From a virus, in IMG/VR virus record IMGVR_UViG_3300022932_000017, positions 9,821 to 73,820 of that record: 64,000 bases of DNA. One strand, written 5' to 3'. Of the stretch, positions 5,472-59,671 are shown piece by piece; position 1 is the first letter of the stretch, and each line of letters opens with the position of its first letter. A program made the position numbers and the translations under genes. The notes under the pieces were generated by a model that was not told the origin of the DNA, did no database searches, and worked only from the letters and a program-made list of their open reading frames with translations.

Positions 5472-5487
5472 AATTTTGTTTTTTTAC

Positions 5488-5495
5488 CAAAGGTA
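5488..5495 (-). promoter_or_regulatory. Bacteroidota sigma-A -7 box TACCTTTG
   Basis: Matches TAnnTTTG; just after a terminator and upstream of the fibre operon. Confidence 0.7.
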
Positions 5496-5508
5496 TTAGT
5501 TTTATCAT

Positions 5509-5536
5509 AAAAAAAGGTGCCGTTTCCGAACACCTT
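5509..5536 (-). terminator. Rho-independent terminator
   Basis: AAGGTG-TTCGGAAACGG-CACC followed by a T run, after the giant gene. Confidence 0.8.
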
Positions 5537-5541
5537 GTATA

Positions 5542-8500
5542 TCAGTCTTTCTCTTGAAGCCCTTTTCTAGTTTCCTCTATTTTCTGTTTGGCTTCTTTAA
5601 TCTTTTCCTTCCTTTCTGCATCACTAAGTGGTTTATCACTTTCAGCATCGGGAGTAAGACCTAAGTAGTTTACAAACCCATCCCTGTAGAAACTGTTCCA
5701 AAAGCTTTTAGTAGAATAGTCAGGAGAGATCTGCGGTTGTCCTGTAACGCCTCTATAAATATTTTGAACCTGTCTACCGAATCTATAAGGTATAATAGGT
5801 AAAGAGGTTTTACTTCCTAATACATCTCCGGCATATCCTCCTGCTTTCTTTAAATCTCCTTCTGTAGCTGCTTCAATACTTTTCACCACCTTAGCCCCAT
5901 CATCAAATGCTGCTACTTTCTGGTTTAGAATCTGTTGCATGAATTTACCCATCTTCTTGTCTTCTAAAGCAAGTAAGAAACTTAAAGCAGGAGGTGAAAT
6001 TACATTGAAGTACTTCTTAGCCCATTCGTTCTTTTTAAGCCAACCTGCGAGGTCTTTATCCTTTCCAGATGATATTGTCGCACCCGCAGCTAGTAAAGAG
6101 ACTGTAGCCCCTATAAATACTCTTCCAGCTGTACTCTTAGCTTTAGCTTCACTCATTAAAGCATACTCCATGTCCTTAATTCCTTTTTCAGTAGTCAAAT
6201 CAAGCTTTCTTCTCTTTACAAAGTTCTCTAAAGGACTCCAAGCATCAACTCCTGCTTTTTGAAGCGTAAGTGTAACCCAATTACTAGCACCACCGACAAA
6301 AGGATTTAGAATGTTCTTTGATAAGATTGAAGTGAACGTAAGCATTGCAGCCTCATTCCACCTTTTCTCTTTAATGGCATCTTTCAATTTACCTTCATTG
6401 TACGAGTTTAACAATCCTACAGTCCTAGAAGCAAAGTTATTCGCCTCATGCCCCATACCTAGACCTGCAACCGTATATCCTGCCCTGTAAGAAGCTTCAA
6501 TCTGATCTAAGGTTAACTTCTCTCCTACAACCAAAGCCTCCTTTACAATGTCCATAGCAAGCCTGTTCGTAAACTCTTTGTTCTCCGGCAGAGTCTTTTT
6601 ACCTGACAGCCTGTTTACCTTTTCAATAATCTCGTTAGCCGTTACAAGTGCATCACTAAACTTCTGTCCTGTAAGATTCTCCGATACATACTGCACCGCT
6701 TCATCCTGCCCCATACGCTTAGGGTTGTTCTTGTCTGTAAGCACCTTTATAAGGTTTCTAGTGAAGTACTTTTCAGTTAGGTTAGCTTTATTCAAACCAT
6801 CCATGCCCTCTAAATAGATACGTCCTAAGATGCCTGATACAACAGCATGATATTTTCTGCTTGTCGAAACATTGTTGATGTAGTTCTCTGTAGCACTTTT
6901 CACCAAGAACGGATTTGATATGTCTCCATAGTCTAGTCCGGCATTGTAGATAGCATCCTTTAACACATTTCTTCCGGCATCCCTTCGTTGTTTCTCTAAT
7001 GCCTTTGTATCGTTCTTTTCAAATGCAAACGTTAGTTTGTTAAACGTCCTTTCAATATATCCACTAAGCGTGTTATCTCCAAGCTGTTTTACTGTGGTTA
7101 AAATAGCACGTTGAGCCATACTCAAATACTCTTGAGTGATTTTAGCTGCTTTAAAAGCACCATTACTCTCATTCCAAGCTACCTTACTCAATAACTGCTC
7201 TATCTGGTGGTTAATTTGATTTACTGCACTATTTAGCCCAAACTCGTTAATCACCCTACCATCGCTTCTTGACTGATACAACTCTGATAAACTCTTAGCA
7301 AGTACTTTAGCTTGAAAGAATGCCTCCTGACCAATACCATTAAGTCCAATAGCATTATTCATCAGGTAATCATACGTATCACTGTTCTTCTCAAACAAAC
7401 CGTAGTTATACAATTCTGCTAATCTCTTTGCTGTAGTCTTAGTGTTTGTCTTAGGCTTCTCTGTATTGCGTGTTTCTAGCTCTTTTAAGCCCTTTTCTAT
7501 TACAGAGGCACGTAAGTCATTGTATTCCTTTTCAAAGCTGTCCTGTAGCCTGTCAATCTCTACATCAGAATAGCCTTTATCCTTTAAGACTTTAGCTACA
7601 TTTTCCTTCATCCGGTCAATACTACCTTCTTCTCCGGCTAGTTTCTTCCAATCTAAAGTTTGTGTTTTCTCTTTACGCTCCACCACATTGCCATTGGCAT
7701 CAGTCTCTTTACGTGTAACTGTAATCTCTCTGCCATAGCCCGACTCAATCAAGGCTTCTTTCACGAATATTTTAGGCGTAGGGTCTAATTGCTCAAGAAC
7801 TTCTAATGCAGCTTTCCTTTCTCCTTTTAACCTATTGATTTCAGGACTCTCTATTGGGTCTTTCTTCGCTTCACGTTCCGCTTTCTCCCCTTTAGCAATC
7901 TGATCGTTTAAACGTTCCAAGTCATTCTGCAATTTCTTTACTGCCGTAGCCTTCATACGCTCGTCTACAATCGCTTTACTCTCCGAAGTAAGGTATTTCA
8001 TCGCCTCACGTTTATAAGCGGATTCTTCGGCTTGTAATGACTGTAATTCAGGATCAGTTAATCTGCTGGTTGCTTTGAGTTCAACTTTCTTATCTGCTAT
8101 CTGCTGTTTAAGGTCTTCAATGCGCTTTCTGATGTTCTCTTTAGCATCAGCTAACTTTTCAGCATCACTCTTAACTTTACCTCGCTTAGTGCCGGATTCA
8201 GTATCAATGTTCTCTTCTTTGAAACCATCAAGCATATCCTTTCTAAAATCGTCTTCCTTAGCCCATTTCTTTTGAGTCTCCTTGATTTTATTTATACCAA
8301 GCTCAATAGCATCAGCAATGTTTACTCCGGCCTTTATAGCGGCTTTAATGGTAGTTATCCCTGCATCAATAATAGCAACCGGAACACCTATACTAGCATC
8401 GTAAGTTTTACTTCTAAGTTTCTTCTGAATCTTGTCTAGTGCCGCAATAGCTTTGTCTGCCGCTTCCCTACGCTTAGTAGGTAGTTTCTCGTAAAGACTG

Positions 8501-11500
8501 TTTACTTCCTTCTCTACTCCTTTAGCAATAGCATTTTCAATATCAGGACTCAACACATCTACAGCATCAGTTTCAATTGATTGTGCTTCCTTATTAATCG
8601 CATCAGGACTAGCTTCAATGCTTTTTTCAATAGTAGCTTTCTCTTGCCTTTGAGCGGAACTAAAAAACTCCTTGGTAATTTGACCCATATCATAAGCCGC
8701 TCGCGCAGCCTGTCTGAATCTACCATAACCAATAGCAATAGCAGCAGACCTTTGAAACTTAGTAGATATATCCCTTACATACTTTAATTGCTTGTTTACA
8801 GCTACTTCATTCTCTGGTTCTGCTAATATCCTTCTCTCAAGCTCATTCTCTAGGGATACAGTAATTAAACTTCGCTTATCTACAGGAAGCTTATTCTCTT
8901 CAACATACTCCATAAGTTTAGTGGCATATTCGTCACCAAACTCTTTTTTAGCATTTTGAACAATATCATCCCCATGCTGAAAATCAATAAGGCTGTCTTT
9001 CCGCTTGTACTCTTTCTCCGAAGCATCTAAAGTCCTTCCTGTCTCACGCTCTACGTTGTTTAAAGTATTACGGATTTCATCAGTCTCTAGGTTCTTATTA
9101 ACCAACTCAACAAACTTGTTGCTTACTTTTCCTTTGGCGGGTTCTGCTTGCTCTGTTTTACTTCCTGTATTTTCTTTTGCATTTGTTCCTCCGTCATTTC
9201 CGGTTGGTTGTATAGTTTCCGCAATAGGTTCAGCTTGTTGTTCGATTGCTCTTCTTTCATGTTCGATAAAATCATTTGTTGTTAATTCTTCGTTTTTAAA
9301 TTCATTTTCAAATTGTGTAGTCTCTTCCGTTGTTAAATTCTCTGCTTTAATCTTAGAGGCGCTATCTGCCAATACATCATCAAACCTAGTTTTAAGTTCA
9401 TCAAATTGTTTGGTAGTAATCTCTCCCTTACTCTTAGCCTCCGTAAGTCTTTTTAATGATGCCTCTGCTTTAAGCGTTTTATTAGCTACTTGTTTTAAGG
9501 CTTTAAGGTCATCCTCCGCTTTGTCTAAGACTTCTTTAGTTCTTTCCGGTGATACACTCTCTTGAGCCACATTCTCTTGTGCAGGTACAGGTTGTTCAAC
9601 TTCATTTGTGCCTTGTTTTAATTTTTGGTCATTTTCTAAATTAACAGGATTCCTTATTTCAGTTTCTTTAGGTTTATATTCCGTTACTAATATATCTCTT
9701 GATCTTCCACCATCAAATGCACCAACAATACCTTCTGACTCCATCTGATCCATTATCTCTTTCGCCCTCTCGTAGCTTATATTCAATTTTTTACTTAAAA
9801 CAGCTATAGAACTATCTTTAGATTCCACAACTGTTTTTGCTGCTTCATCAAATAATGGGTCTAGTGTTCTAGGCGTCTCTACAGCAGATGAAGGCTTATC
9901 CTGCACAACTTCATTTTCTTTTTCAAAATCATAAACTTTAACATTAATACTAGTTTTACCGCTCTGTATGTCATTAGCTATCCTATGATGCCCATCTAAC
10001 ACATAATATTTATCACCTTCTTTTAATAAAGCAACATCTTCTGTAGGATTATTTTGGTTTTTAGTTCCTCCTAATTTATCAGCTTGTAGCGATTCTTGAG
10101 TTGGCACTATATCATTAATATCAACTATCTGCTTCGATTCTTCATAACCTGAATTATCGCCCTCTTTTGACTTACTCCGTTGTTCTTTAATAAGTCTATT
10201 TGCTTTTAAAACCTTTTCACTAGTTGCTTGGCTTATTTTATTTTTAAAAATATTTTCAGAAGGTATTTTATTATCAACCTGTTTCTCTCTTACTGTAGTG
10301 TTACCGCCTACTTCTGTATTAATAACCTCTTGTGGAACTTCTGGCTTGCTTCTTTCAGTCTGTTCAAGATTGTATCTTTCCTCTGTAATTTCAACAGGTT
10401 TCTCTTTACCGATCTGTTTAGTGTAGGTTCCTTTCTCTTCATCAAAGCTATACTTGGTTTTAAGACCTGTAGCAAGCTCTCTAAGCTTATCATTAGACTG
10501 ATCGATCTTATTCTCTAAAGCAATCTCTTCGGGTAGTTTAATCTCTCCTAATGCAGGGTCGGTAGGAGTCTTCGTAGATTTAACATTATCCAAAGCTTCC
10601 TGCATCTCATTACGCCCTGTAATCAAATCCACTCCTTCATCAAATTGTTTAGGGGTAAATTGTTCCGGTAACTTAGACACAGCATCAGCAATAACCATAG
10701 CTTGCTTTTGAGTGTTTGCTATCTCTTCTGGTTTCCACCCTTGCTTAGCGCCTAACACACCAACATCTTCAATTACCTTGGCGACATTTTCAGGACTCCT
10801 GTCAGCTTTAACAGCATCAATAACCATATTCTTATACGGAGACTTGCTAAACATCATCCCTACATCTTGCCTCATGCCAAGACCCGCAAAGATTGGCGCA
10901 TCTTCCGTAAGTATCTTTCCAATCGTATCACTCATTTCTTGAGGACTTTGCGCCTGAAAGGCTTCCGACTCATTTACATCATTAGCTTTTTTCTTTAACT
11001 CATTATCCACATACGCTAGTGCCGTTAAATCAAGTGAGGTATTACGATAAGCCTTGGCGCCTTTATTTAAGAACTCTGGAATCTTCTTAGCAATACTCAC
11101 ACTTTGCTGTTTCATGGCATTAGCGATACTCTCTGCTGTAATAGCCTCTCCTGAATCAACCAAACCCTTCATAGCATTAACAGTAGCTTGTCCGGCTAAG
11201 TCGTCTCTAACCGCAGCAGGAAGCTTATTAAATAATACATGTGAGTTAAGCGCTTTCATCAACGTGTAATCAGTAATCATTTTGCCAACTCTATACAGGT
11301 CATCAGCACCATTCTTAAACTCTACACCATTCTTTTTAGCCTCACGAATCTCTTTATCTGCTGTTCCCGCTCCATTCATAGCGAAACTCATTCCCCCTGT
11401 AGCCTCTGCGCTAAGCATAGCAGGAACAAACTCTGCAAGTGAACCTACAGCCCTATCTACAGGAGTGAAGCCCCTAAAATTATCCTCAAGTCCCATAGAT

Positions 11501-12063
11501 GTTTTTTCTTGAGCTTTATCAAAAAATTCATTGTTTATCTTTTCTTCTTCGGGAGTATAATCTTCACCACCTAATACTTTTCTTCTTAGAAGGTCTGCCG
11601 CAGACAATACGCCTTCTCCAAGATTTACAGCACCTCTAGCAAGTCCCCTTCCAATAATCTTAGTGATTCCCTCCATTCCGGTCTGTACACCGCCCCAATA
11701 AGTATCCCCGTATTTCTTTTTATAGGATTCTAACTTATCGTTAATGACCTTTTCTTCATCTACCGAAGTATCAGGATTTTCTATGCGCTGTTGAGCAGTT
11801 AATTTAGTAGGATCTACCCTATAGTTAGCAGCAGTCTGTTCTTGAACTGTTATAGGTTTGTATGCTCCTAAAGCAGTCAAGTCTAGTTTTACTTTAGGAG
11901 TCTTTACAGGTGTTTGTCTTAGTTCTTTTGGTTGAACTGAAAATGATTCGTCTTGCAGGTTATTAGCCGCCTGTAATATATTAGTACTTTGGAAAGGCTT
12001 TGAGCCACTTCCAGATGTTTGAACACCACTCTTTGAAACGGCTGAACCCCCCCCCAGCCCCAT
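5542..12063 (-). CDS. Giant internal/ejected virion protein (polyvalent-type) with ParB-like and FtsK-gamma domains; probably the downstream frame of a frameshifted gene starting at 12199
   Basis: 2173 aa, mostly helical/charged; VLDGHHR motif; DPLFDEAA...LNISYERAKEIMDQMESEGIVG FtsK-gamma signature; follows two pilot-like genes. Confidence 0.7.
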   Translation of the reverse strand: MGLGGGSAVSKSGVQTSGSGSKPFQSTNILQAANNLQDESFSVQPKELRQTPVKTPKVKLDLTALGAYKPITVQEQTAANYRVDPTKLTAQQRIENPDTSVDEEKVINDKLESYKKKYGDTYWGGVQTGMEGITKIIGRGLARGAVNLGEGVLSAADLLRRKVLGGEDYTPEEEKINNEFFDKAQEKTSMGLEDNFRGFTPVDRAVGSLAEFVPAMLSAEATGGMSFAMNGAGTADKEIREAKKNGVEFKNGADDLYRVGKMITDYTLMKALNSHVLFNKLPAAVRDDLAGQATVNAMKGLVDSGEAITAESIANAMKQQSVSIAKKIPEFLNKGAKAYRNTSLDLTALAYVDNELKKKANDVNESEAFQAQSPQEMSDTIGKILTEDAPIFAGLGMRQDVGMMFSKSPYKNMVIDAVKADRSPENVAKVIEDVGVLGAKQGWKPEEIANTQKQAMVIADAVSKLPEQFTPKQFDEGVDLITGRNEMQEALDNVKSTKTPTDPALGEIKLPEEIALENKIDQSNDKLRELATGLKTKYSFDEEKGTYTKQIGKEKPVEITEERYNLEQTERSKPEVPQEVINTEVGGNTTVREKQVDNKIPSENIFKNKISQATSEKVLKANRLIKEQRSKSKEGDNSGYEESKQIVDINDIVPTQESLQADKLGGTKNQNNPTEDVALLKEGDKYYVLDGHHRIANDIQSGKTSINVKVYDFEKENEVVQDKPSSAVETPRTLDPLFDEAAKTVVESKDSSIAVLSKKLNISYERAKEIMDQMESEGIVGAFDGGRSRDILVTEYKPKETEIRNPVNLENDQKLKQGTNEVEQPVPAQENVAQESVSPERTKEVLDKAEDDLKALKQVANKTLKAEASLKRLTEAKSKGEITTKQFDELKTRFDDVLADSASKIKAENLTTEETTQFENEFKNEELTTNDFIEHERRAIEQQAEPIAETIQPTGNDGGTNAKENTGSKTEQAEPAKGKVSNKFVELVNKNLETDEIRNTLNNVERETGRTLDASEKEYKRKDSLIDFQHGDDIVQNAKKEFGDEYATKLMEYVEENKLPVDKRSLITVSLENELERRILAEPENEVAVNKQLKYVRDISTKFQRSAAIAIGYGRFRQAARAAYDMGQITKEFFSSAQRQEKATIEKSIEASPDAINKEAQSIETDAVDVLSPDIENAIAKGVEKEVNSLYEKLPTKRREAADKAIAALDKIQKKLRSKTYDASIGVPVAIIDAGITTIKAAIKAGVNIADAIELGINKIKETQKKWAKEDDFRKDMLDGFKEENIDTESGTKRGKVKSDAEKLADAKENIRKRIEDLKQQIADKKVELKATSRLTDPELQSLQAEESAYKREAMKYLTSESKAIVDERMKATAVKKLQNDLERLNDQIAKGEKAEREAKKDPIESPEINRLKGERKAALEVLEQLDPTPKIFVKEALIESGYGREITVTRKETDANGNVVERKEKTQTLDWKKLAGEEGSIDRMKENVAKVLKDKGYSDVEIDRLQDSFEKEYNDLRASVIEKGLKELETRNTEKPKTNTKTTAKRLAELYNYGLFEKNSDTYDYLMNNAIGLNGIGQEAFFQAKVLAKSLSELYQSRSDGRVINEFGLNSAVNQINHQIEQLLSKVAWNESNGAFKAAKITQEYLSMAQRAILTTVKQLGDNTLSGYIERTFNKLTFAFEKNDTKALEKQRRDAGRNVLKDAIYNAGLDYGDISNPFLVKSATENYINNVSTSRKYHAVVSGILGRIYLEGMDGLNKANLTEKYFTRNLIKVLTDKNNPKRMGQDEAVQYVSENLTGQKFSDALVTANEIIEKVNRLSGKKTLPENKEFTNRLAMDIVKEALVVGEKLTLDQIEASYRAGYTVAGLGMGHEANNFASRTVGLLNSYNEGKLKDAIKEKRWNEAAMLTFTSILSKNILNPFVGGASNWVTLTLQKAGVDAWSPLENFVKRRKLDLTTEKGIKDMEYALMSEAKAKSTAGRVFIGATVSLLAAGATISSGKDKDLAGWLKKNEWAKKYFNVISPPALSFLLALEDKKMGKFMQQILNQKVAAFDDGAKVVKSIEAATEGDLKKAGGYAGDVLGSKTSLPIIPYRFGRQVQNIYRGVTGQPQISPDYSTKSFWNSFYRDGFVNYLGLTPDAESDKPLSDAERKEKIKEAKQKIEETRKGLQEKD

Positions 12064-12199
12064 CGGTGATGGAGCTTTTATATTCTGGATACTTTACTAA
12101 CATCTTATCTGCTAACTCTGTATCGTCTACATCCTTGTACTCTGGATATTTCTCTTTTATTTTTTGAGCAAACTGTTGCTTGGTTACTTTATCAGGCAT
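11981..12199 (-). CDS. Short ORF, probable true N-terminus of the giant protein
   Basis: FAQKIKEKYPEYKDVDDTELADKMLVKYPEY internal repeat; good A-rich start context; overlaps the giant ORF across a G9 run. Confidence 0.7.
   Translation of the reverse strand: MPDKVTKQQFAQKIKEKYPEYKDVDDTELADKMLVKYPEYKSSITDGAGGGFSRFKEWCSNIWKWLKAFPKY
12047..12055 (-). repeat. G9 homopolymer (C9 on + strand) at the frame junction
   Basis: GGGGCT-GGGGGGGGG-TTCAGCC; loss of one G fuses the two ORFs. Confidence 0.9.
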
Positions 12200-12208
12200 A
12201 ATTTATAT

Positions 12209-13528
12209 TTAGAAAAGACCTAATGGGTCATTTTTCGGTTTAACTGTTTTTTGTTTGTTTACTCTGTCACGTTCCGTTTGTATAGCACCTTTAACTTTCC
12301 CTGCGGCATTACCTGTCTGGAATTTACTTTCGGATACATTCTCTCCGGTAATGTCGCTTAACAAGCGGTTTAACTTCAACTTCCCTTCCGGTGAACGCTT
12401 GTCTATAGTAACCGTATATGCAGGAGTCTCTTTCATCTTAACCTTACCCTCTGCATCATACGATTCAGTTACCTTTTTAGGAACCCTCACCTCAATGAAA
12501 TTACCTTTAGAACCTATCATGTTTTTAACAGCATTCTGGTCATAACCCGGCATTGCGCTTACAATAGCTTTAAACCTTTCTCCTGAACCTGCAACTCCGC
12601 TAAGCATATCATTTACCGTCTTCTGCCTGTACAACGTAGCTTCATCTGCTGCTCCTTTATCATTCTTTCTTGCCCTTTGAAGCATATCAGAATAATTAGC
12701 TCTTTCTCTCCAATCGTCATTCTCTTTAAAGACAGGTTTAGCGGGCTCTTTCTTTACCCTATCCTTTACCAATTGACTAATTAAAGTGTTTTTTAATTGA
12801 ACGGGATCAGTTATACTTGCCGCTAGATCAGGATACAATTGTTTTGCCGCTAACTTGAAGTCTGTATCTGCATCCCATTTCGCTGAATACCTCTGCGCTT
12901 GCATTACAGGGTCTATTACCCTTTCTTGAGTAACTAATACCCCTGACTTATTTCCTTGCTTGTGAGGCACTTCTAATGGGTTGTTCCATTTAGAACTCTT
13001 TAATACTAATTCATCGTCTTTATCCAATTCGGAAAGAACCTTGTTAACGTCAATTTTTCTTTCAAACGTAGTTAAATCCCTGATGTATTTAGGATCGTTC
13101 CTTGACAAGTTTTTAGATTGCTGATATTTAGTAACAGCATCATCAGTGAAGTTATCTCTCTTAGCAGGATCCATAAAGAGAGCATTCAATGCAGTTTCTC
13201 CTTTAGCTAAATTCTTAGAGTCATATACCATATTCTGCAAGTCTAACTCTTTTTCATCAAACTGACGCTTTAACATAGCTTTCTTCTGCAAATCTTTTTC
13301 CGCTTGAATCTGTCCGTAAAGGTTTTTCCACTCGTTATACTTTGAGGTATATTCAGGAACATCACCCTGACGAACTCCATCAATCTTAACCTTACCCATT
13401 TCTTCCTGCAAAGCTTTCTGTTCTGCCTGACGTCTAGCCTCATTCTGTTGAGCTTGTTTAAGGTAGTAGTTTACAGATCCACTAGTGTCAAATACAACCG
13501 AATCATTAGCGTTTAGTCCTTCTCTCAT
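12209..13528 (-). CDS. Putative internal/ejection virion protein
   Basis: 439 aa, helical, Q/K-rich; between the pilot-like and giant genes. Confidence 0.55.
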   Translation of the reverse strand: MREGLNANDSVVFDTSGSVNYYLKQAQQNEARRQAEQKALQEEMGKVKIDGVRQGDVPEYTSKYNEWKNLYGQIQAEKDLQKKAMLKRQFDEKELDLQNMVYDSKNLAKGETALNALFMDPAKRDNFTDDAVTKYQQSKNLSRNDPKYIRDLTTFERKIDVNKVLSELDKDDELVLKSSKWNNPLEVPHKQGNKSGVLVTQERVIDPVMQAQRYSAKWDADTDFKLAAKQLYPDLAASITDPVQLKNTLISQLVKDRVKKEPAKPVFKENDDWRERANYSDMLQRARKNDKGAADEATLYRQKTVNDMLSGVAGSGERFKAIVSAMPGYDQNAVKNMIGSKGNFIEVRVPKKVTESYDAEGKVKMKETPAYTVTIDKRSPEGKLKLNRLLSDITGENVSESKFQTGNAAGKVKGAIQTERDRVNKQKTVKPKNDPLGLF

Positions 13529-14154
13529 TAGAATCCTGCTGATGGTAAATAATTTCTAATATAACCGTTACTTCCTTGAGGTGGCATTTGAGAATTAGTA
13601 CCGCCACCTTGTTGTCCACCATAGTAGCTTTGGGCTAATTGGCTAAGATCGGTTAAGGCTCCAAAACTGTTTCGCTTTCCATCTGCAATAGTTTGAGAAG
13701 CTGCGTTCCCTTGTTGGATGTATTTTTGCTTTTTATTCCAATCCCATACCCTTTGTTCTTCATTAGCTAACACACCTCTCTGTCCCATAAGAACGCCCTG
13801 ATTTCTTAATCTAGTATTAGCATCCTGAACATCAAGGCTTAATGTGGCATCATTAGAAGCTCTCACAAGAGACGCAAGCCCCGCACTCGGATTAGCACTT
13901 CTACCCAATTGAGTTAAAACCCCTTGTTGGTTCCTTTGAATGTTCTGTGCTGCTTGGTTATACTGTTGCTGTGGTAAACCTACTTGAGCCATTTGTTCCG
14001 CTTGCGCTACATTCTTTAAAATATTGTTGTTTACTTGAGCTGTTGGAAAGGGGTTATTTTTAGCCATTTTATTCCCTTTGAGAATTCCGGCTATTCCGGC
14101 TATTCCTTTTAAAACCGATGGTGCAACTGCTGCCGCTATTAATGGTAAAGGCAT
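13528..14154 (-). CDS. Putative DNA ejection (pilot-like) protein
   Basis: Hydrophobic Ala/Gly N-terminus (MPLPLIAAAVAPSVLKGIAGIAG) followed by Gln-rich helices. Confidence 0.6.
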   Translation of the reverse strand: MPLPLIAAAVAPSVLKGIAGIAGILKGNKMAKNNPFPTAQVNNNILKNVAQAEQMAQVGLPQQQYNQAAQNIQRNQQGVLTQLGRSANPSAGLASLVRASNDATLSLDVQDANTRLRNQGVLMGQRGVLANEEQRVWDWNKKQKYIQQGNAASQTIADGKRNSFGALTDLSQLAQSYYGGQQGGGTNSQMPPQGSNGYIRNYLPSAGF

Positions 14155-14203
14155 AATATTTATTTTTTTTATGTTATTTACTTAAACAAAGTACGTCAAT
14201 TAT

Positions 14204-15124
14204 TTAGCGTGTTCCAATTTTACTCGGTATACTGTTCACCGCAACGTTCTTCAACCGTAGTATTCCGTTCTCTGTAGTCACAAGTTCGATTACAATATAA
14301 GTCCCTTTAAGGTCGTCTCCGTTAATAATATCTACATTCTTATCTTTCATAAACGAAGCACTAAACACACCTTCTACACTATAAATATCCACTTGGTCAA
14401 CTCCATCATCCATTACATCTTTCAGAAAGTCATATTCAATTAATTCTGATACCTGACCCAAACTTGTAGAAATACCATCAACACTTGTTATCATCAGCAT
14501 ATTACCCTCGTAAGATAAGCTTTCAAATGTTTTAGGCTGTCCTTCATTTCCATTAGCAGTGAATTTTATCAGTGTTTTATATTGCATACCATAATATCTG
14601 TTTCTGCCTTCAATAGAAGCCTTGTGAGCGTATAACTGCCCAGACTTGAATGTATATAGGTTTGTGAACAACGAAAAGCCTGTATCGAAGTTTAACGGCT
14701 TAAAACAACTCCATTTATTGTTCTTTTCCGACCATGACAAAGTGTTCTTCTGTTTTAGGCTCGTATCCTCTACTGTATCGCTAATTGTAAAGGAAGTCAG
14801 TTTAAGGTTAGCGTTAGAATAAACCGTAAGTATAGGGTCACTACCTGTAGCTGTAATGGTTAGATTTACAAAACCCGGAGTGGTTCTATTTGCGGATGCC
14901 GCTGTTCCTGCATTAACCCTGAAAAATCCTGAATTTATATACTCCAAACTATAACTAATCTGATAAGTATGTCCAGAAATCAAAGGATAATTTCTTAAAG
15001 TCATCTGCCCTGCATTACATACCTCATGTATAGCGTAATCCTCGAATATAGTCCAACCAAATGACTTGCCTAATGTGAGCAAGTCTAAAGTGATCGGTGT
15101 GTTCTGTAGTGTTGTAAAGCTCAT
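14204..15124 (-). CDS. C-terminal part of tail nozzle/stabilization protein with an extra N-terminal beta domain
   Basis: TLSWSEKNNKWSCF...YTFKSGQLYAH...RNRYYG...KTFESLSYEG resembles the C-terminus of nozzle proteins of this phage type. Confidence 0.6.
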   Translation of the reverse strand: MSFTTLQNTPITLDLLTLGKSFGWTIFEDYAIHEVCNAGQMTLRNYPLISGHTYQISYSLEYINSGFFRVNAGTAASANRTTPGFVNLTITATGSDPILTVYSNANLKLTSFTISDTVEDTSLKQKNTLSWSEKNNKWSCFKPLNFDTGFSLFTNLYTFKSGQLYAHKASIEGRNRYYGMQYKTLIKFTANGNEGQPKTFESLSYEGNMLMITSVDGISTSLGQVSELIEYDFLKDVMDDGVDQVDIYSVEGVFSASFMKDKNVDIINGDDLKGTYIVIELVTTENGILRLKNVAVNSIPSKIGTR

Positions 15125-15125
15125 A

Positions 15126-18100
15126 TTATGTAAAGATTACTTCTGCTGTTAATGTTGTTTTATTATACCGTATAACCCCTACTTTATAAGAGTTTGCAGG
15201 TGTATGTGTGCTATTGTGTATAGTAGTGTTTAATAGCCTAGTATCGCTAGATACCGTAACACCACCTGTATTTACGATATTCGTCCCTACCTTACTCATA
15301 GTCCCTCCTTTATAAGTAACAACCTCTAAAGTGAAGTCACCAGAAGCAACCGAACCATACCAGACACAATACAATCCAACTTCAACGATATTAGGACTTG
15401 AAGGAAAGTCTGTCACAAACTTTAATATGTTAACCAAAGCTCCTTCTATACCTTGTGGAGCAGCGCTTGAATTGGTATCATCTAAACCCCACCACAAGTA
15501 AGCATTTGATTCAGGAGTTGTGCCAGAAAGGACAGTATCATCAACATTCCCAAACCCAACAAATATATTATCAATAGTAGGCGTATCATTATTTTCAAAT
15601 TGAACTTGAATATCTAAATCACTCCCCGCACTAGGGTAATCCCAAAGGAACCTAGCTACCAAGAAGTCAAAGTCAGGAATTAAAATGGTTGTGCCTGTAT
15701 TTACATTAAAGATTCCGTCTACACCACCTATCGTTAAAGTTGTAGAAGTAGTTGTATCTTCTGTTGCAGAACTTGTCTGTCTAACTTGTACAGTTTGTCC
15801 ATTACTCACGTTTCCCGCAGCCGATGTATAAGCCCCTCCATTGATTCTATACTCGCCACCTGTAATAGTTGTTGGTGAAGGTGCCCCAAGCCCTGTAATA
15901 GTTACAATATTCGATTCATAAACCGTAGATAATTCAGCATCACTAATATCAATAAAATCAAAAGGATCGGGTTCTGTATCGGTCTTAGTTTTAGCATCAA
16001 AAGAATCTGAATAACCTCCTACGGTAAGAACAGAACTCGTTGTTGTATTATAAGAGGCACTTGTAGTTTGTCGAACCTCAATCGTATCTCCTGCATTAAC
16101 ATTTCCCGCTATATTTGTCCATGCGCCTCCGTTAATCCTATATTCACCTCCTGTTATGCTTATTGGCGCCGGAATAGTATTTCCTCCAATCAATATAGAG
16201 TTAGAAATTACAACAGTACTTAGCTCCTGATTAATCAAATCTATAAAGAAGAATGAATTTACATCAGTGCTTCCGGCAGTAATCGTTCCACATACATTGC
16301 TTTGAATAACGTTTTCTCCAATCTCAAAAGAGAAGATAAACCCTACTGACCCTGTATAGTCTGTTTCAGGAGTAAATACCGCTTGTCCTGTAGTTGTGTT
16401 GATAACTACGCTTCCATGATTGGAACTAACCAATAGTAATGTCGAAGGATCAATCCCAAAGTCAAACTGATATTGCCATGTAGAACTATTGAATTTAAAG
16501 CTCGTCACAATGCCACCTAACGTTTCAATGTGTATCGTATACTCTTCGTTGTAATTATCAAATAACCCATATATCTTTTTACCATCCTTCTTAGCTTGTT
16601 GTAATACCCTCATAAAGAACTTGGACATTTTAACTGCTATTGGTGCCACACCATTATATCCATCCCGTATAGGCAATGAATTATTTGGGTCAACAAAGTA
16701 TATTGTTCCATTCCTAGACTTCACAAAGCTTTCCTTAGCGGTGCCTATCCCAAAGCTACCTGACTGCAAGTATCTGGCTTTATTCAAAAGCTTATCGGAG
16801 ATTGCTACATTCTGATTCTCTGCCTGATCTTCTAAAATTGAAATGTTAACAGGAATATGAATTAATTTCAACTCTTGAATACATACTAAGTATGAATCTC
16901 TTTGGCTAAGCACTCCAATAGCTCCGAACTGTGAAGAGGTTTCTCCTGCTCCATCACCATAAATACGCTCTCCATAAAACCTAGAAATGCCATTCACCCT
17001 GCTTCCGGTAATAAATGTATCAGAATATCTTATAGAAGCTTTCTTTCGTGTCTCTTCCTGTTCATCGTTATAGAGTCTTGGCCTTCCATAGGAGTAGTAA
17101 TTAGATTTATAAAAGTCACTGAAATTAAAATCTTCAACAAGGAAAGTATAAGGGATGTTAACATCGATATTGCTTACAAGATTTCTTGTTTTAAAATACG
17201 CATCAGCTTCTCTTATAACTCCTGACTTAACGGTATAGTCTCCATTCTGAATAAGTATCTGCTCTCCTATTTCATAAAATAATGTAGAAGTTTCCGAAGT
17301 TACACCATCATTAGTTTCTGTTCTTTTCTTTGGTGAATATATCTCTAAAAGGACTTCTTTACCTGTTATGTCTGCAATATTTATAGATGCTGACTTTCTA
17401 ACCTTAAGATTATACTTGGTTGTATTAGGATCTACACTAGTATCTACCACAATATCTAACCCCACAACTTCAACGTCTATAGCAGGTGCATCAAACCATT
17501 TTACAGGAGTAGATGTGCTCCCTGTAAACGTAAACATAAATGTACACCTATCTCCAACAGAATAGTCATAACTTAAAATTGAAGAAGAATTGACTTGGTT
17601 AAATCTTAAAAGCGAAGTTATATTAAAAACTAAATAATCATCATTGGATAGAAAAGCATCCAAGGCACCATTAATATATAAGTCCGTAGCGTGTGTATTA
17701 TTAAAAGAAATCAACCACTGTGCACTTTCTGCTCCGGCAGGAGGTAGACTATTTATCTGCCAACTTATTTGAGGAATAAAACCATGTGTCTGCGCGTACG
17801 ATGGGGTCTTAATCATAAATCTCTTATCACTGACAATAGGAAAGTAATTCCCTGCACCTTTGTAATGTGCTAAAGCCAATTGATAGGCCGAATTTAATTT
17901 TATACTATGTATAGATTTTGACACTCCCGTTCCGGCATTCTGTAAAGTAACTGTTGCATATGAAAGCTCAAAATAAGGGTCGGTCTTTATATATAATGCG
18001 AAAGGAGTGGTATTACTGTTGGGTATACCAATAGAAAATGAATTTATTGCGGATATGGTATCGTTGTTTTGAGTTATAGGGACTGTATAAGAATAGTTTT

Positions 18101-52720: not shown

Positions 52721-53446
52721 ATGGAAACTAACAAAGAATATTTACAACGATTATTGCCCCTTCTAAAGAAGGAGATACCTTCACAATGGAGGGTACAAAG
52801 CTACTCTAAGAACAAGCCTATTGCTACGGTAATGAGTTACATCGACCAAAGAGATTTAATGGATGTACTAGACGCTTATTGCGATTATGGATGGGAAAAG
52901 AGATACGAAGAGGTTGCCGGAAATGTATTCTGCTCGATTGGCATACACATGCCTGATGGTACAACTCATTGGAGAAGTGATTGCGGAGTAGAAAGCCAGT
53001 CAGATGCCGAAAAAGGGCGTGCAAGTGATGCAGCTAAAAGGGCAGGTGTTAATTGGGGTGTTGGGAGGTTCTTATATGACAAGAAAATACAATATGTACC
53101 AACTAATGTTAAAAAAGAAGGAAATAACTATCCGTATTGCATAGACGAACAAGGTAAACAGATTTGGGACTTGACTACCTACATTAACAACAAGAATCCG
53201 AATGCTCCTAAAGCACCTGTTAGCGTAGCAGAACCTACAATTGACCAAAAGGTTCAACAAATGAATCCTGCTAAGTCACCATTAACCGAAGAAAAATTAA
53301 AGCAATACAAAGAGGCTATTGATAAAATAGTATCAGCTACAGGCTTAACAGGGTATTACAACTCACTTGCCGCAGATGTACAGGCAAATAAAACAGTACA
53401 ACAGTATTTAAAAGACAAACGTGATTCACTTAAAGCTAAAGCATAA
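52721..53446 (+). CDS. sak: Rad52/Sak-family single-strand annealing protein
   Basis: WRVQ...YIDQRD.MD.LD...WRSDCG.ES..AEKG.ASDA.KRA.V.WGVGRFLY. Confidence 0.85.
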   Translation: METNKEYLQRLLPLLKKEIPSQWRVQSYSKNKPIATVMSYIDQRDLMDVLDAYCDYGWEKRYEEVAGNVFCSIGIHMPDGTTHWRSDCGVESQSDAEKGRASDAAKRAGVNWGVGRFLYDKKIQYVPTNVKKEGNNYPYCIDEQGKQIWDLTTYINNKNPNAPKAPVSVAEPTIDQKVQQMNPAKSPLTEEKLKQYKEAIDKIVSATGLTGYYNSLAADVQANKTVQQYLKDKRDSLKAKA

Positions 53447-54117: not shown

Positions 54118-54567
54118 ATGGACAAAATAAGATTATTAGCTATTGACCAAGCAAGTGCTTGTGGATGGGCTACAGCGAATGCTTCGGGAGTATGGGATTT
54201 TAAAACCAGAAAGGATGAATCTAGTGGCATGAAGATGTTGCGATTCCGTTCTAAATTAAAAGAGGTTTGTGGACTAGAGGAAATAAACTTGATTGCCTAC
54301 GAAAGAGTTGCCGGATTTCACAAAGAAGCAATTATTCATGCTGCCAAAATGGTTGCTATTATAGAAAGCTATTGTGAAGAAAATGGCATTCAATATAAAG
54401 CCGTTTCAGCTACAGAGGTGAAGAAATATGCTACAGGTAAGGGCAAAGCTAACAAAGATAAAATGGTTGAAGCAGCACAGATTAAATTAGGTTATACAGG
54501 TAAGGATGACAACGAGGCTGATGCTTTATGGATTTACCAATTAGTAAAAAATGAATTAAGCTTTTAA
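54118..54567 (+). CDS. RuvC-like Holliday junction resolvase
   Basis: LLAID...IAYE...VKKYATGKGKANK..M...DDNEADA. Confidence 0.85.
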   Translation: MDKIRLLAIDQASACGWATANASGVWDFKTRKDESSGMKMLRFRSKLKEVCGLEEINLIAYERVAGFHKEAIIHAAKMVAIIESYCEENGIQYKAVSATEVKKYATGKGKANKDKMVEAAQIKLGYTGKDDNEADALWIYQLVKNELSF

Positions 54568-55484: not shown

Positions 55485-55517
55485 TTTGCAACTGTAAAAT
55501 ATTACCACGTACTTTGC
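55485..55517 (+). promoter_or_regulatory. Sigma-A-like promoter TTTG-N21-TACTTTGC
   Basis: -33 element plus a near-consensus -7 element, upstream of the structured leader. Confidence 0.6.
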
Positions 55518-55532
55518 TGTACAATATCAACA

Positions 55533-55662
55533 CCCCTGCCAAGGAGTTCAGATATAAAGTAGTACTTCAAAGATAATCCATAAGGGGTTAGGAGTTTTAA
55601 CATAAATACCATCTTACTTGGCAGGGGAATAAGGTATCAATTGTTTAACCCTAACCCCTTTT
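55533..55662 (+). ncRNA. Structured 5' leader with interleaved inverted repeats and a terminator-like end
   Basis: CCCCTGCCAAG (55533-55543)/CTTGGCAGGGG (55617-55627) crossing AAGGGGTTAGG (55582-55592)/CCTAACCCCTT (55650-55660). Confidence 0.65.
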
Positions 55663-55935
55663 GCTATGACAGGCAATTTAAAAACTACTCCAACATGACA
55701 GCCCACACTACAGCGTTAGTGACAAAGGCGCTTGCAAATGTTACACTTCAATTTACGAGATTGACTGGATCAGGTCACACTTACATGGTTAAGAATAAAG
55801 ATGATTTTTCAGGGGGACTTTTTCTTTTCTTTCTTCTTTTCCTTTATTTTCTTACGCTTCTTTTATTTCCTTTTGTTCTTTCTTTTCTTTTGGGGCAGGG
55901 AAAGAAAACCGCATAAAGACTAAAAACAAACTCAA

Positions 55936-56817
55936 ATGAATAACACAGAAATCATAAACAAAATACTGTTCTCAAAAACGGCAGCAGAACTATTTGAAGA
56001 TTTATCAGACTGGAAGAAAACATACAGGTTATACAGTAAAATTCACCCTGATATATGTAAAGAACCAAAAGCACAAGAAGCCTTTGTAAAGTTAAACGAA
56101 TTTAAAACTGAACTCGAAAAAGGTAAAACTCACAACGATGATGCAGGAACTGTAACTTATTCCCTTTATACAATTGAAATAATTGGTGATGCAGATCTTC
56201 TTAAATCCTCTTTTGAAAACTACAACAAATTAATGGCGCTCACTGATGAATCCTCTAAGCACTTTAAAAAATACATTCCTACATCCGGCAGAATGATTTC
56301 CGATAATGAGTTAGAATGGACTATAGATTATAGGGCAATGCCTTTATCTTCAATAGGCGACCAACCACATTTACATGTTAATTGGATTACAAGCAGAATG
56401 TTAGAATTTGCATCGTGGCTTAGTCAGGTAGGATATTGTCATGCAGGAATTAACCCTGATTCAATTTACATTATTCCTGAAAATCATGGCATGATGTGTA
56501 TTTCTTTTTACCACATGGTAGCTATGGGAACTAAATTAAGAAGCGCATCAGGTAAATATTCAAATTTATACCCTCATAAAATATTTGACCACAAAAAAGC
56601 CACCTCTAATATCGATATAGAGCTTGCTAAGCGAACTGCAATATACTTACTAGGGGATAAGTCAGCTACAGGAAATAAACTCCGTAAAACCCACAATGAA
56701 GAGATTATAGACTTCCTTCAAAAGACGGATTACGATGGACTGGAAACCTACAAAGAATACAGGTCAATCCTAAAAAAACACTTCGACACAAAACAATTCA
56801 ATAAATTAATCATATAA
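55936..56817 (+). CDS. J-domain fused to a protein-kinase-like (pseudokinase) domain
   Basis: WKKTYRLYSKIHPD...AQEAFVKLN J-domain; GYCHAGINPDSIYII catalytic-loop-like segment lacking HRD and DFG. Confidence 0.75.
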   Translation: MNNTEIINKILFSKTAAELFEDLSDWKKTYRLYSKIHPDICKEPKAQEAFVKLNEFKTELEKGKTHNDDAGTVTYSLYTIEIIGDADLLKSSFENYNKLMALTDESSKHFKKYIPTSGRMISDNELEWTIDYRAMPLSSIGDQPHLHVNWITSRMLEFASWLSQVGYCHAGINPDSIYIIPENHGMMCISFYHMVAMGTKLRSASGKYSNLYPHKIFDHKKATSNIDIELAKRTAIYLLGDKSATGNKLRKTHNEEIIDFLQKTDYDGLETYKEYRSILKKHFDTKQFNKLII

Positions 56818-56830
56818 ACAAAGAAAGACA

Positions 56831-57751
56831 ATGGGAAGTTCAAGTTGGTCAAGTGATGCTTATCAAAATTTAAGAGCATCTAACAGTACAAAAAGTACAA
56901 ATCAAATTTTCACTCAAAGCGCAAAGAAAACAACCGCTACAGAGTTATCGCCAATTAATCTTAAATTCAGAGAAGCCAGAGATAGCGACGCTCACCCTGA
57001 ATCATTAGCGGTAATCGTTAACCTTGATGTAACAGGTAGCATGGGTAGGATACCAGAAGTTATGGTAAGAGAGAAATTAGGAACCCTAATGGACACATTA
57101 ATCAGTCATGGTATTAAAGATGCCTCTATCTTATTCGGAGCAATAGGAGATCATTTTACAGACACCGACCCTTTACAGGTGGGACAATTTGAATCCGGAA
57201 CTGATGAAATAACTAAGTGTTTAACCTCTATCTATCTTGAGGGTTACGGTGGCGGTCAGGTAAAAGAATCTTATTTGTTGGCATGGTTAATCGCTGCACG
57301 TCACACAAGTATCGATTGCTTTGAAAAACGTGGGCAGAAAGGAATCTTGTTTACTATTGGTGACGAAGCATCTTGGGATAAGGTAAGCGCAGATAAGTTA
57401 AAAAACCTGCTTGGTTATTCAGAGGCTACAGAAATTACAGATAAGGATATTTTAGAGGAAGCACAAAGAATGTATCACGTATTTCACATACATGTAAATG
57501 AGGGTAGTTACAAAGACAATCCTACCGTTCTTGAGTATTGGAGAAATATGGTTGGTGAAAGATTAATTATTTTGGATAATTACCAAAACATAGCTGAATT
57601 AATCGCTTCTACCGTTGCTATTATTCATGGCATTGACATCGACCAAGTAACTAAATCATTCAGTCCGGCAGTAGCCTCAAGCATTAAGAATGCTCTTGTA
57701 AGAGTAGACACATCAGTAGCAAAACAATCAAACAAAGTAATTACATTTTAA
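56831..57751 (+). CDS. vWA domain protein
   Basis: MIDAS-like LDVTGSMG; EGYGGGQ..ESY; FTIGDE. Confidence 0.85.
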   Translation: MGSSSWSSDAYQNLRASNSTKSTNQIFTQSAKKTTATELSPINLKFREARDSDAHPESLAVIVNLDVTGSMGRIPEVMVREKLGTLMDTLISHGIKDASILFGAIGDHFTDTDPLQVGQFESGTDEITKCLTSIYLEGYGGGQVKESYLLAWLIAARHTSIDCFEKRGQKGILFTIGDEASWDKVSADKLKNLLGYSEATEITDKDILEEAQRMYHVFHIHVNEGSYKDNPTVLEYWRNMVGERLIILDNYQNIAELIASTVAIIHGIDIDQVTKSFSPAVASSIKNALVRVDTSVAKQSNKVITF

Positions 57752-57752
57752 T

Positions 57753-58835
57753 ATGAAAGCAGTAATAGGCATGGGATATGGCGATGAAGGTAAGGGGCTA
57801 ACAACCTCTTACCTTTGTTCCAAAACTATAAACCCACTAGTAGTAAGGTTTAACGGAGGTCATCAGGCAGGACACACAGTAGTCTATGAAGGACAGAGGC
57901 ATATATTCTCCAATTTCGGATCTGGTAGTCTACAAGGCGTTCCTACATTATGGAGTCACTTTTGTACCTTTCATCCTAGTCACGTTCTAAACGAATACAA
58001 TGCTCTTAATAACCCTAAATTATTCGTACATGGATTATGCCCTATTACTACTCCTTACGAAATCCAAGCAGGATGCGAAAGAGAGAAAGCGGTTCAACAT
58101 GGTTCTGTAGGCTTAGGGTTCGGTGCTACCATACAAAGACAGCAAGATTATTTCAATCTATATGTACAGGATTTGCCTTTTGAAAGTATTGTGAGAGCTA
58201 AACTTCATAACATTTCTCTTTACTACGGGTTTAAATTAGATATAACACAGTTTTTAGCCGATATAAGAGAGGTTCTTGATGTGATTGATATAGTTAACTA
58301 CTACTATAACTTATTCATGCATTACAACCCTATTTTTGAAGGAGCGCAAGGCATATTGTTAGATCAGGACTTCGGTTTCTTCCCAAATGTTACAAGGAGC
58401 AATACTACAACACATAATGTTTTATCTCTTACCGAAGCAGTTGAGGTATTCTATGTAACTAGAACGTACCAAACAAGGCATGGAAATGGATTTATGACTA
58501 ATGAAGGTCTGCCATTAGAATTGGTTAATATAGAGAATGAAACTAACGTTTTAGATGAATGGCAGGGAGTATTCAGGAAATCAGTGCTAGATATTGATTT
58601 ATTGAACTATGCTTTAACATGCGACAACAATTTCTCTAAAAACTGCCAGAAGAATCTAATTATAAGTTGTGTTGACCAAACTGGATATGATTTTGATGTT
58701 ACTGTTGGAGGCAAGATTAAAAGAATTGAATTAGTAGAATTACCAACTCTGTTAAATGCCAAATTTGAAAACGTATTATTCAGTAAAGGCGATTCATTGG
58801 ATTGCATCGAGTCCTTACCTCAATTAGTGTATTAA
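57753..58835 (+). CDS. Divergent adenylosuccinate synthetase (PurA)-like ligase
   Basis: GYGDEGKG, RFNGGHQAGHTV, FEGAQGILLD, FPNVTRS, TRTYQTRHGNG. Confidence 0.9.
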   Translation: MKAVIGMGYGDEGKGLTTSYLCSKTINPLVVRFNGGHQAGHTVVYEGQRHIFSNFGSGSLQGVPTLWSHFCTFHPSHVLNEYNALNNPKLFVHGLCPITTPYEIQAGCEREKAVQHGSVGLGFGATIQRQQDYFNLYVQDLPFESIVRAKLHNISLYYGFKLDITQFLADIREVLDVIDIVNYYYNLFMHYNPIFEGAQGILLDQDFGFFPNVTRSNTTTHNVLSLTEAVEVFYVTRTYQTRHGNGFMTNEGLPLELVNIENETNVLDEWQGVFRKSVLDIDLLNYALTCDNNFSKNCQKNLIISCVDQTGYDFDVTVGGKIKRIELVELPTLLNAKFENVLFSKGDSLDCIESLPQLVY

Positions 58836-58879
58836 ACTATAACGGTAATAACAATACACACCCTAAACAAAACAAAAAC

Positions 58880-59671
58880 ATGGAAATTAAATTCACAACA
58901 GACGGACGTAAAGTCGTAGTCATCGGAAACCTAAACGCACAAGAAAAAATAGTACAGGAGGTTTTTATAGTAAACAATATTGAGGTTCCTAGCGGAGAGA
59001 ACTTCGTGGTAAAATCACTACATGACGCTCCTGCAATATCTTGGAAGGAAAGTGAAGTTAAAAAGATGGATGCTATATATGAGAAGCAAAAATTAGCTCA
59101 CGATCAGAGGATGGATGACCTCAATAAAAGATTGAGAAAAAATAGAGAGGAACTGGAATCTAAACTTTTGTATGTAGGGAAAGTTCTGAAAGAGGTGTCA
59201 GAGGACAGTTTTAATATGATAAGCGACTACTTGTGTGGACACATAAAATATGTTGTTGTAGACTCGTACAGTGCGCCTGAAATAATAGAGATAGACAAGT
59301 TCCAAGAGACAAGAGAAGATAGTTTTTACAGTGACAGAAGATTGAGGCTTATATCTATATACGGCAATGACAATGGCAGTTTAACTTTTAAACAAGGTCA
59401 GTATTCAGATGGTTCCGGTAGTGATATATGTACGTTTCATCCTTTTAAAGATTATGAGTCTGCATTGGAAAAATTTAAAGAAATCATTTTAACAAAAGCA
59501 ATCTCCGATTCTTTAATTGTTCTGGCAAAAACTCATGGAGTGACTTTAGATAGCGAGAAGCTAGAAGAATATAAAGATAATAAACGTAAAAATTATCAGA
59601 GCAATATCGAGCGTTACAGTAAAGACTTAGAAACTTTCAAAAAGGCTTTAGAAGATGTAGATTCGATTTAA
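58880..59671 (+). CDS. Conserved phage coiled-coil protein
   Basis: TTDGRKVVVIG.LN.QE.IVQEVF...EVPSGENFVVKSLHD.P. Confidence 0.75.
   Translation: MEIKFTTDGRKVVVIGNLNAQEKIVQEVFIVNNIEVPSGENFVVKSLHDAPAISWKESEVKKMDAIYEKQKLAHDQRMDDLNKRLRKNREELESKLLYVGKVLKEVSEDSFNMISDYLCGHIKYVVVDSYSAPEIIEIDKFQETREDSFYSDRRLRLISIYGNDNGSLTFKQGQYSDGSGSDICTFHPFKDYESALEKFKEIILTKAISDSLIVLAKTHGVTLDSEKLEEYKDNKRKNYQSNIERYSKDLETFKKALEDVDSI

Follow-up and report, generated by a model that had tools for sequence, protein, structure and literature searches.

A PurA-like enzyme linked to a vWA protein and a J-domain pseudokinase: a widespread phage and bacterial module found beside NAD and ADP-ribose genes in some relatives

Adenylosuccinate synthetase (PurA; EC 6.3.4.4; E. 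coli structures PDB 1ADE and 1CG0; Pfam PF00709) and its paralogue PurZ, of the 2-aminoadenine pathway of phages phiVC8 and S-2L, represent the only two reactions for which the PurA fold is, to our knowledge, known: the synthesis of AMP and, by PurZ, that of 2-aminoadenine. Here, we describe a PurA-like enzyme, PurAL, encoded in a phage genome as the last of three genes, after those for a J-domain pseudokinase (JK) and a protein with a von Willebrand factor A (vWA) fold. The stretch of DNA analysed (64,000 nucleotides, hereafter ‘the window’) comprises bases 9821–73820 of the IMG/VR virus record IMGVR_UViG_3300022932_000017, which is 73,820 bp long and 100% complete according to CheckV. The trio is a single instance of a protein module, complete in itself, that is widespread in phages and bacteria. 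No description of it turned up in full-text searches of the published literature or in papers on viral NAD and ADP-ribose systems (from the Aravind group), the NrtR regulon, R2K ATP-grasp proteins and aRES. We propose, with moderate confidence, that PurAL is an aspartate-independent PurA-type ligase with an obligate vWA partner and that it serves a phage–host conflict centred on nicotinamide adenine dinucleotide (NAD) and ADP-ribose.

PurAL has the fold of PurA over residues 3–251, the stretch to which its match with the Pfam family Adenylsucc_synt (2.2e-35) is confined, and its sequence matches in the PDB are all PurA proteins, ending at residue 246–251. It keeps the Asp of the P-loop GDEGKG, the His of GHT, FEGAQG, the SNTT region and, mostly, the guanine-contacting Asp333 of PurA, but its C-terminal third is remodelled. 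When 77 family members were aligned with E. coli PurA and phiVC8 PurZ, Asp13, Lys16, His41 (GHT) and Gln224 (FEGAQG) proved to be conserved at 90% or more across the family, and TRHG to be invariant. Asn38, by contrast with PurA, is Gln throughout, and the inosine monophosphate (IMP) loop GTTGRG has become HG(S/T)CGxG, with T128, T129 and R131 replaced. The aspartate loop GATTGRRRR has given way to an N..QG..R segment that is one residue shorter and lacks Thr301, Arg303 and Arg305; in the phage protein, NETNVLDEWQGVFR stands in place of GxTTGRxRR. Because TKLD reads TC(L/V)D in the family, Lys331 is lost, with Asp333 mostly kept.

Scores and phylogeny agree with this pattern. Against the curated PurA models PurAL reaches 100.8 bits (NF002223, cut-off 402, hence a quarter of the cut-off) and 89.8 bits (TIGR00184, cut-off 395.55), and against the curated PurZ model NF038379 it reaches 36.2 bits (cut-off 300). 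In a maximum-likelihood tree, all 77 PurAL sequences group together (SH-aLRT 98), to the exclusion of four PurA proteins of the housekeeping type and two PurZ proteins, and bacterial and viral members interleave within this clade (the reference row PurA_Dactylo, which was in the wrong frame, was disregarded). PurAL resembles PurZ in being a phage-borne PurA paralogue of ~340–370 aa with an altered choice of substrate, but PurZ, whose partners in the Z cluster are DatZ and MazZ, has Ser for Asp13 and still uses aspartate, whereas PurAL keeps the Asp and belongs to another clade. Unlike PurA, it is paired with a vWA protein, and where it occurs, a housekeeping PurA is either encoded separately or missing: Chryseobacterium, Mucilaginibacter and Dactylosporangium encode a full-scoring PurA (560–610 bits) and PurB alongside PurAL, and one Saccharibacteria and one Absconditabacterales metagenome-assembled genome (MAG; both of the candidate phyla radiation [CPR], and possibly incomplete, as MAGs may be) encode PurAL without PurA or PurB. 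From residue pattern, model scores, clade and this PurA/PurB census, it follows that PurAL is neither a housekeeping PurA nor a PurZ. A sequence-only reading of the window had already proposed that the enzyme is not PurZ and not an ordinary gene of AMP synthesis, and both proposals are upheld: Asp13 is kept and the clade is separate from PurZ, the aspartate pocket is lost family-wide with no loss of the catalytic Asp, His or Gln, and the score lies far below the PurA cut-off. The same reading had recognized no purB in the window, and a PurB-type lyase was not found anywhere in the whole 73.8-kb record. Judged by its residues, PurAL appears to remain competent for phosphotransfer, and it is unable to bind aspartate in the manner of PurA.

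The vWA protein has no match in Pfam. Its AlphaFold2 (AF2) model (pLDDT 91, pTM 0.90), which shows a Rossmann-like vWA fold, is matched in Foldseek, with probability 1.0, by integrin I-domains, the vWA domain of Ku80 and NorD of NorQD. Since D66, T68, S70, T159 and D178 are invariant among 35 diverse homologues, the protein has a complete metal ion-dependent adhesion site (MIDAS; D-x-S/T-x-S...T...D), and the Met-Gly start and many charged positions are invariant in the same set. In sets of 78 sequences from bacteria and 79 from viruses, every intact copy begins with MG, followed in nearly all of them by an aromatic residue two to four residues later, and no N-terminally extended form occurs among the longer proteins searched. 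The N-terminal Gly and the MIDAS-like motif, both singled out in the sequence-only reading, are thus invariant in the sequences compared. At E ≤ 1e-3, the family comprises 6266 clusters of homologues. Tight genetic coupling of a P-loop NTPase to a vWA protein with a MIDAS is also seen in the MoxR/AAA+ pairs (NorQD, CbbQO and the magnesium chelatase ChlI/ChlD); PurAL, however, is a PurA-fold protein of ligase type with no AAA+ ring, and the vWA protein of the trio differs in its invariant free N-terminal Gly.

Linkage between the two proteins is close to obligate. Gene context was established by a related-locus search and calling of open reading frames (ORFs), and adjacency was counted in 80 bacterial and 80 viral loci: PurAL directly follows vWA in 77 of the bacterial loci and follows it, directly or past a few inserted genes, in 76 of the viral ones, the exceptions being mostly cut contigs. 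The vWA family was found at no fewer than 587 loci in species-representative bacterial genomes and on at least 568 viral contigs, and the three families co-occur widely, as the sequence-only reading would have it. Three independent proteins (P0121, P0126 and P0128) are vWA–PurAL fusions, always in that order and always with the MG start retained. Inteins usually sit at conserved functional sites, and here they interrupt vWA immediately before IGDE of the MIDAS (P0122 and P0123) and PurAL at the catalytic GHT loop (P0124, P0125 and P0129–P0133). P0127 and P0134 have C-terminal extensions that match nothing. Endonuclease genes were also seen at the pair: a GIY-YIG homing-endonuclease gene (~255 aa), present in 16 viral loci, lies in most of them between vWA and PurAL (e.g. 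L095, L097, L101, L103, L105, L108, L141, L142 and L162), and in some mycobacteriophages an annotated HNH endonuclease splits the vWA gene.

Named carriers of the pair include ~200 cluster C mycobacteriophages (in which JK is annotated as a Ser/Thr kinase), Rhizobium phages of Cuauhnahuacvirus, a phage from the gut and Vibrio phage Va1. The distribution of the cassette is patchy: it is present in 67 of 101 Chryseobacterium species genomes, in 1 of 121 genomes of the order of the Saccharibacteria carrier and in 3 of 151 of its phylum (Patescibacteria). The closest relative of the PurAL described here (61% identity) is encoded in a Bacteroidota MAG (L016), in which JK lies ~6 kb upstream of vWA–PurAL with many small ORFs around, so that this region looks like phage or prophage rather than chromosome.

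The third protein, JK, consists, in its AF2 model (pLDDT 92), of a J-domain of four helices followed by a domain with the protein-kinase fold; the HPD motif lies between helices II and III (flanking helices at residues 23–36 and 46–62). Its kinase domain matches CHK1, VRK3 and PDK1 in Foldseek (E ~1e-7, TM 0.5–0.58). Among 19 JK homologues, P38 and D39 of HPD never vary, as is also true of H169, P181, H184, D227 and G240, and at least 90% of them share H37; the beta-3 Lys, the HRD Asp and the DFG Asp are not conserved, so JK is a pseudokinase. The description of a kinase without HRD and DFG but with an intact HPD motif is thereby confirmed and extended to the family. JK is not the only third partner: 39 viral loci have JK and 33 have a helical protein of ~111 aa with no family match, never both, and the small helical protein can thus replace the J-pseudokinase. 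Directly before vWA, in the place of JK or the small protein, Vibrio phage Va1 (L003, 3222–3935) and the gut phage (L004, 3486–4094) have a Met/Gly-rich protein of 200–240 aa with no family match, which may be a third alternative partner.

In several groups of relatives, the module stands among genes of NAD and ADP-ribose metabolism, a context that, like the exchange of JK for the small helical protein, the sequence-only reading had missed. The long, operon-like Chryseobacterium run (loci L037–L076, e.g. L037 at 5425–16786), which relatives of that genus share, consists of NrtR (here a Nudix–winged helix-turn-helix protein), NADAR, a 2-oxoglutarate–Fe(II) oxygenase, the small helical protein, vWA, PurAL and Macro, and continues with DUF4291, PARG, Sir2, ADP-ribosylglycohydrolase (ARH), Tpt1/KptA and a calcineurin-like phosphoesterase. 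In many of these loci, a 21-bp palindrome, TTWGYGTAAnnnTTACRCWAA, separates nrtR from the gene that follows it. In Mucilaginibacter, the order is nrtR–prs–nadV–ARH–JK–vWA–PurAL, of which nrtR–prs–nadV is the type of NAD-salvage operon controlled by NrtR, an ADP-ribose-sensing repressor (Rodionov et al. 2008; PMC2330246). The same study lists an NrtR-regulated two-gene operon of unknown function, nrtX–nrtY, in Streptomyces, Frankia, Kineococcus, Proteus and Hahella (Table 1 of PMC2330246); nrtX–nrtY could be the vWA–PurAL pair, an identity that we offer as a candidate.

Phage relatives show similar company. One IMG/VR phage lineage (L147–L154) has NADAR and, further on, NAMPT–NadE–vWA–PurAL–Prs-like–small helical protein–GuaC-like (of the IMPDH/GMP-reductase family), and a second lineage has HAD(SAK)–JK–vWA–PurAL–R2K ATP-grasp–DNA ligase; the pair lies a few genes downstream of Nampt and NadM–Nudix in Rhizobium phages and near a NADAR gene in Vibrio phage Va1. 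Genes for NAMPT, Prs-like proteins, NadE, NADAR, Macro and NrtR are thus found in one operon with the module in relatives, which likens it to the phage NAD+ reconstitution pathways NARP1, NARP2 and NARP3 and to the NrtR-controlled nrtR–prs–nadV operons, and like the NARP genes it is found in both phages and bacteria; the phage described here differs in having the trio without any NARP gene. We know of no NARP enzyme that has a PurA fold or needs a vWA partner. The anti-ADP-ribosylation systems centred on ARG (Iyer et al. 2022; PMC9503650) likewise combine NrtR/Nudix, ARH, Macro, NADAR and phosphoesterases with a vWA protein, predicted to be a chaperone, but the paper makes no mention of a PurA-like enzyme or a J-domain pseudokinase. 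A Ter (tellurite) cluster with a TerY vWA protein was ruled out as an identification, since the neighbours are NAD and ADP-ribose genes according to Pfam.

The mechanism that we propose would begin in the style of PurA, with PurAL transferring phosphate from GTP to an oxygen atom of a nucleotide of purine type; a nitrogen nucleophile other than aspartate would then displace the phosphate, and PurB would not be needed. The vWA protein, in an obligate complex with PurAL, would hold a ligand at its MIDAS or present its own N-terminus, and the J-pseudokinase would be the scaffold by which host DnaK is recruited. The module would act in an NAD+- and ADP-ribose-centred conflict between phage and bacterium, and in this phage it would do so as a stand-alone module in a block with recombination genes. 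When host NAD-directed immunity fires, the trio probably protects or restores the nucleotide pool, or modifies a target.

Several observations weigh against this proposal. Profiles for NAMPT, Macro, NADAR, NrtR, Sir2, ARH, Tpt1 and Prs find nothing in the window, the Flavobacteriia NrtR-type operator (a pattern derived from the regions downstream of nrtR in Flavobacteriia loci and identical to the palindrome given above) has no match there, and no NAPRTase-family gene is present in the 73.8-kb record; neither Adps plus Namat nor Nampt plus Nmnat, the enzyme pairs of NARP1 and NARP2, was found. With no NAD gene and no NrtR box here, the NAD link of this phage is one of association in relatives only, and the trio is a module on its own, sufficient in itself. 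In most loci from Saprospiraceae and from viruses, the neighbours are unrelated genes, and no PADLOC defence model matches the trio or its Chryseobacterium versions. The J-domain scores below the Pfam gathering threshold (DnaJ, PF00226: 1.3e-3, 19.2 bits against 27.8). The change of N38 to Q, together with the lost contacts to the 5'-phosphate, makes a mononucleotide substrate uncertain. Finally, the substrate, nucleophile and product of PurAL are all inferred, as are its activity, its complex with the vWA protein, the recruitment of DnaK and what the trio does for its carrier.

Four other explanations were considered. PurAL may be a small-molecule enzyme of adenylate or NAD rescue, with the vWA protein and JK merely regulating or scaffolding it, which we regard as possible but unlikely. 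It might directly aminate IMP, ITP or an inosine-containing dinucleotide with ammonia or a small amine, or it might phosphorylate the 1''-OH of ADP-ribose so that nicotinamide displaces the phosphate to give NAD+. This reading gains from the position of PurAL in some relatives between NAMPT/NadE and a Prs-like gene and beside a GuaC-like gene (GMP reductase, GuaC, makes IMP), although a single phage lineage is the sole source of the GuaC/NadE context, and from the two CPR genomes with PurAL but neither PurA nor PurB. Some bacterial PurAL genes lie under or beside NrtR, with its sensing of ADP-ribose (PMC2330246), and ADPR-1''-phosphate is a real breakdown product of NAD (bioRxiv 10.64898/2026.01.28.702374); the ADP-ribose variant is nonetheless pure chemical analogy. 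Neither variant explains the obligatory, sometimes fused MIDAS vWA protein with its invariant N-terminus, or a partner that would recruit a chaperone. That N-terminus is instead the centre of a distinctly unlikely alternative, in which PurAL would join C6 of a 6-oxopurine nucleotide to the alpha-amine of vWA Gly2, in the place of aspartate, to give a nucleotide-tagged protein, with DnaK loading or releasing the product. The sequence-only reading had likewise suggested a nucleotide joined to a protein amine, possibly that of the vWA partner, with DnaK recruited and a possible part in host takeover. The universal MG start, the vWA-first polarity that leaves MG free in three of three fusions, the lack of N-terminal extensions and the loss of the dicarboxylate-binding arginines, which a neutral peptide amine would predict, are consistent with such self-modification. 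Access of the vWA N-terminus to the PurAL pocket is, however, a presumption, an invariant N-terminus is equally explained by folding, partner binding or MIDAS chemistry, and a module maintained within operons of NAD metabolism would not usually have a stoichiometric protein substrate.

An improbable explanation dispenses with ligase chemistry and treats the trio as an NTPase-adaptor: PurAL would be a GTP switch, the MIDAS of vWA would grip an acidic residue of a target, for instance an ADP-ribosylated protein, and the J-domain would pass that target to DnaK. Pairing of P-loop NTPases with vWA proteins is recurrent, NorQD being among the fold matches, a role as a peptide-binding chaperone has been suggested for vWA in the ARG-centred ADP-ribose systems (PMC9503650), and the HPD motif is conserved. 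Yet Asp13, His41 and Gln224, conserved family-wide, act on IMP and not in GTP hydrolysis, and PurA is no AAA+ remodeller. That the gene is an ordinary auxiliary metabolic gene, a divergent but working adenylosuccinate synthetase that boosts AMP and whose neighbours are unrelated, would fit its PF00709 match and the ‘adenylosuccinate synthetase’ label of homologues in public records; we consider this highly improbable, given an aspartate loop gone in the whole clade, a score a long way from the PurA cut-off, near-obligate linkage and fusion to vWA, and the absence of PurB from the phage and the two CPR carriers. The preferred reading remains that of an aspartate-independent ligase with an obligate vWA partner.

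The features of the locus are listed in Table 1. The sequence-only reading had described three tightly packed genes behind their own promoter and structured leader. The packing was borne out (all three ORFs lie at the coordinates it gave on the plus strand, with gaps of 13 nt between JK and vWA and 1 nt between vWA and PurAL), and every motif that it quoted is present in the three translations. The promoter did not find support: sigma-70-like sites number 15, against 16.1 in shuffled sequences, in a scan that does not cover promoters of the Bacteroidota type. As for a structured leader, two inverted repeats are indeed present, interleaved as A–B–A'–B' in a pseudoknot-like topology, but the fold energy is unexceptional (z −1.6), no Rfam family matches the leader and its sequence is not conserved in related loci. 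A T/C-rich tract of ~90 nt (55805–55900) lies just 5' of the JK start, and an ORF over this tract (55641–55916, 91 aa) is probably spurious.

Table 1. Features of the trio and its surroundings, in window coordinates.
Feature	Position	Strand	Residues	Remarks
Rad52/Erf-like annealing protein	52721–53446			Upstream of trio; Pfam/PHROGs
RuvC-like resolvase	54118–54567			Upstream of trio; Pfam/PHROGs
Non-coding leader	55485–55935	+		451 nt, before JK
Inverted repeat A	55533–55543/55617–55627			11 nt, perfect
Inverted repeat B	55579–55592/55650–55663			14 nt, 93%
JK (J-domain pseudokinase)	55936–56817	+		ORF of 293 aa
JK, J-domain			1–62	
JK, HPD	56044–56052		37–39	
JK, HAGINPD	56440–56460		HAGINP, 169–174	At HRD position
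JK, CISFY	56497–56511		188–192	At DFG position
vWA protein	56831–57751	+		ORF of 306 aa
vWA, Met-Gly start	56831–56836			MGSSSW is aa 1–6
vWA, LDVTGSMG			65–72	D66, T68 and S70 at 57026–57040
vWA, IGDE	57356–57367			MIDAS, with D178
PurAL (PurA-like enzyme)	57753–58835	+		ORF of 360 aa
PurAL, P-loop GDEGKG	57780–57797		10–15	Kept
PurAL, GHT	57870–57878		Within AGHT, 39–42	Kept
PurAL, IMP loop HGSVGLGFG	58098–58124			Remodelled
PurAL, FEGAQG	58335–58352			Kept
PurAL, aspartate-loop replacement NETNVLDEWQGVFRKSVLD	58536–58592			NVLDEWQGVFR in the sequence-only reading
PurAL, SCVD	Within 58662–58679			Counterpart of TKLD
Downstream ORF	58802–59671			phrog_16901, unknown function; from its TTG start overlaps PurAL 3' end

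A block of recombination genes precedes the trio, and the remaining neighbours are unknowns. In PHROGs, JK matches a kinase, vWA phrog_2971 (unknown function) and PurAL phrog_1211. The downstream ORF has an internal Met 25 codons in that is a possible start without overlap with PurAL, and it lies outside the conserved module in other loci.

New in this analysis are the polarity of the three fusions, the positions of the inteins, the viral alternation of JK with the small helical protein, the census of PurA and PurB in carriers, the neighbourhood with NadE and a GuaC-like protein, and a trio in a phage with no NAD gene or recognizable NrtR box. PurAL represents a third, large clade of the PurA fold in which aspartate appears to have been dropped and which is locked to a vWA protein and a putatively chaperone-recruiting pseudokinase, and the ‘adenylosuccinate synthetase’ annotation in the phage and metagenome records examined would need correcting. 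Its recurrent placement with NAD-salvage and ADP-ribose genes leads into the most active area of research on phage–bacterium immunity (NAD depletion, NARP and aRES). Should conjugation to Gly2 be true, which we rather doubt, it would be a previously unknown protein modification, a C6–N nucleotide link, in an NAD- and ADP-ribose-centred conflict. Identifying the product of PurAL would define a new enzyme activity, and that product might reveal a new form of counter-defence or, in bacteria, a new route of defence or repair.

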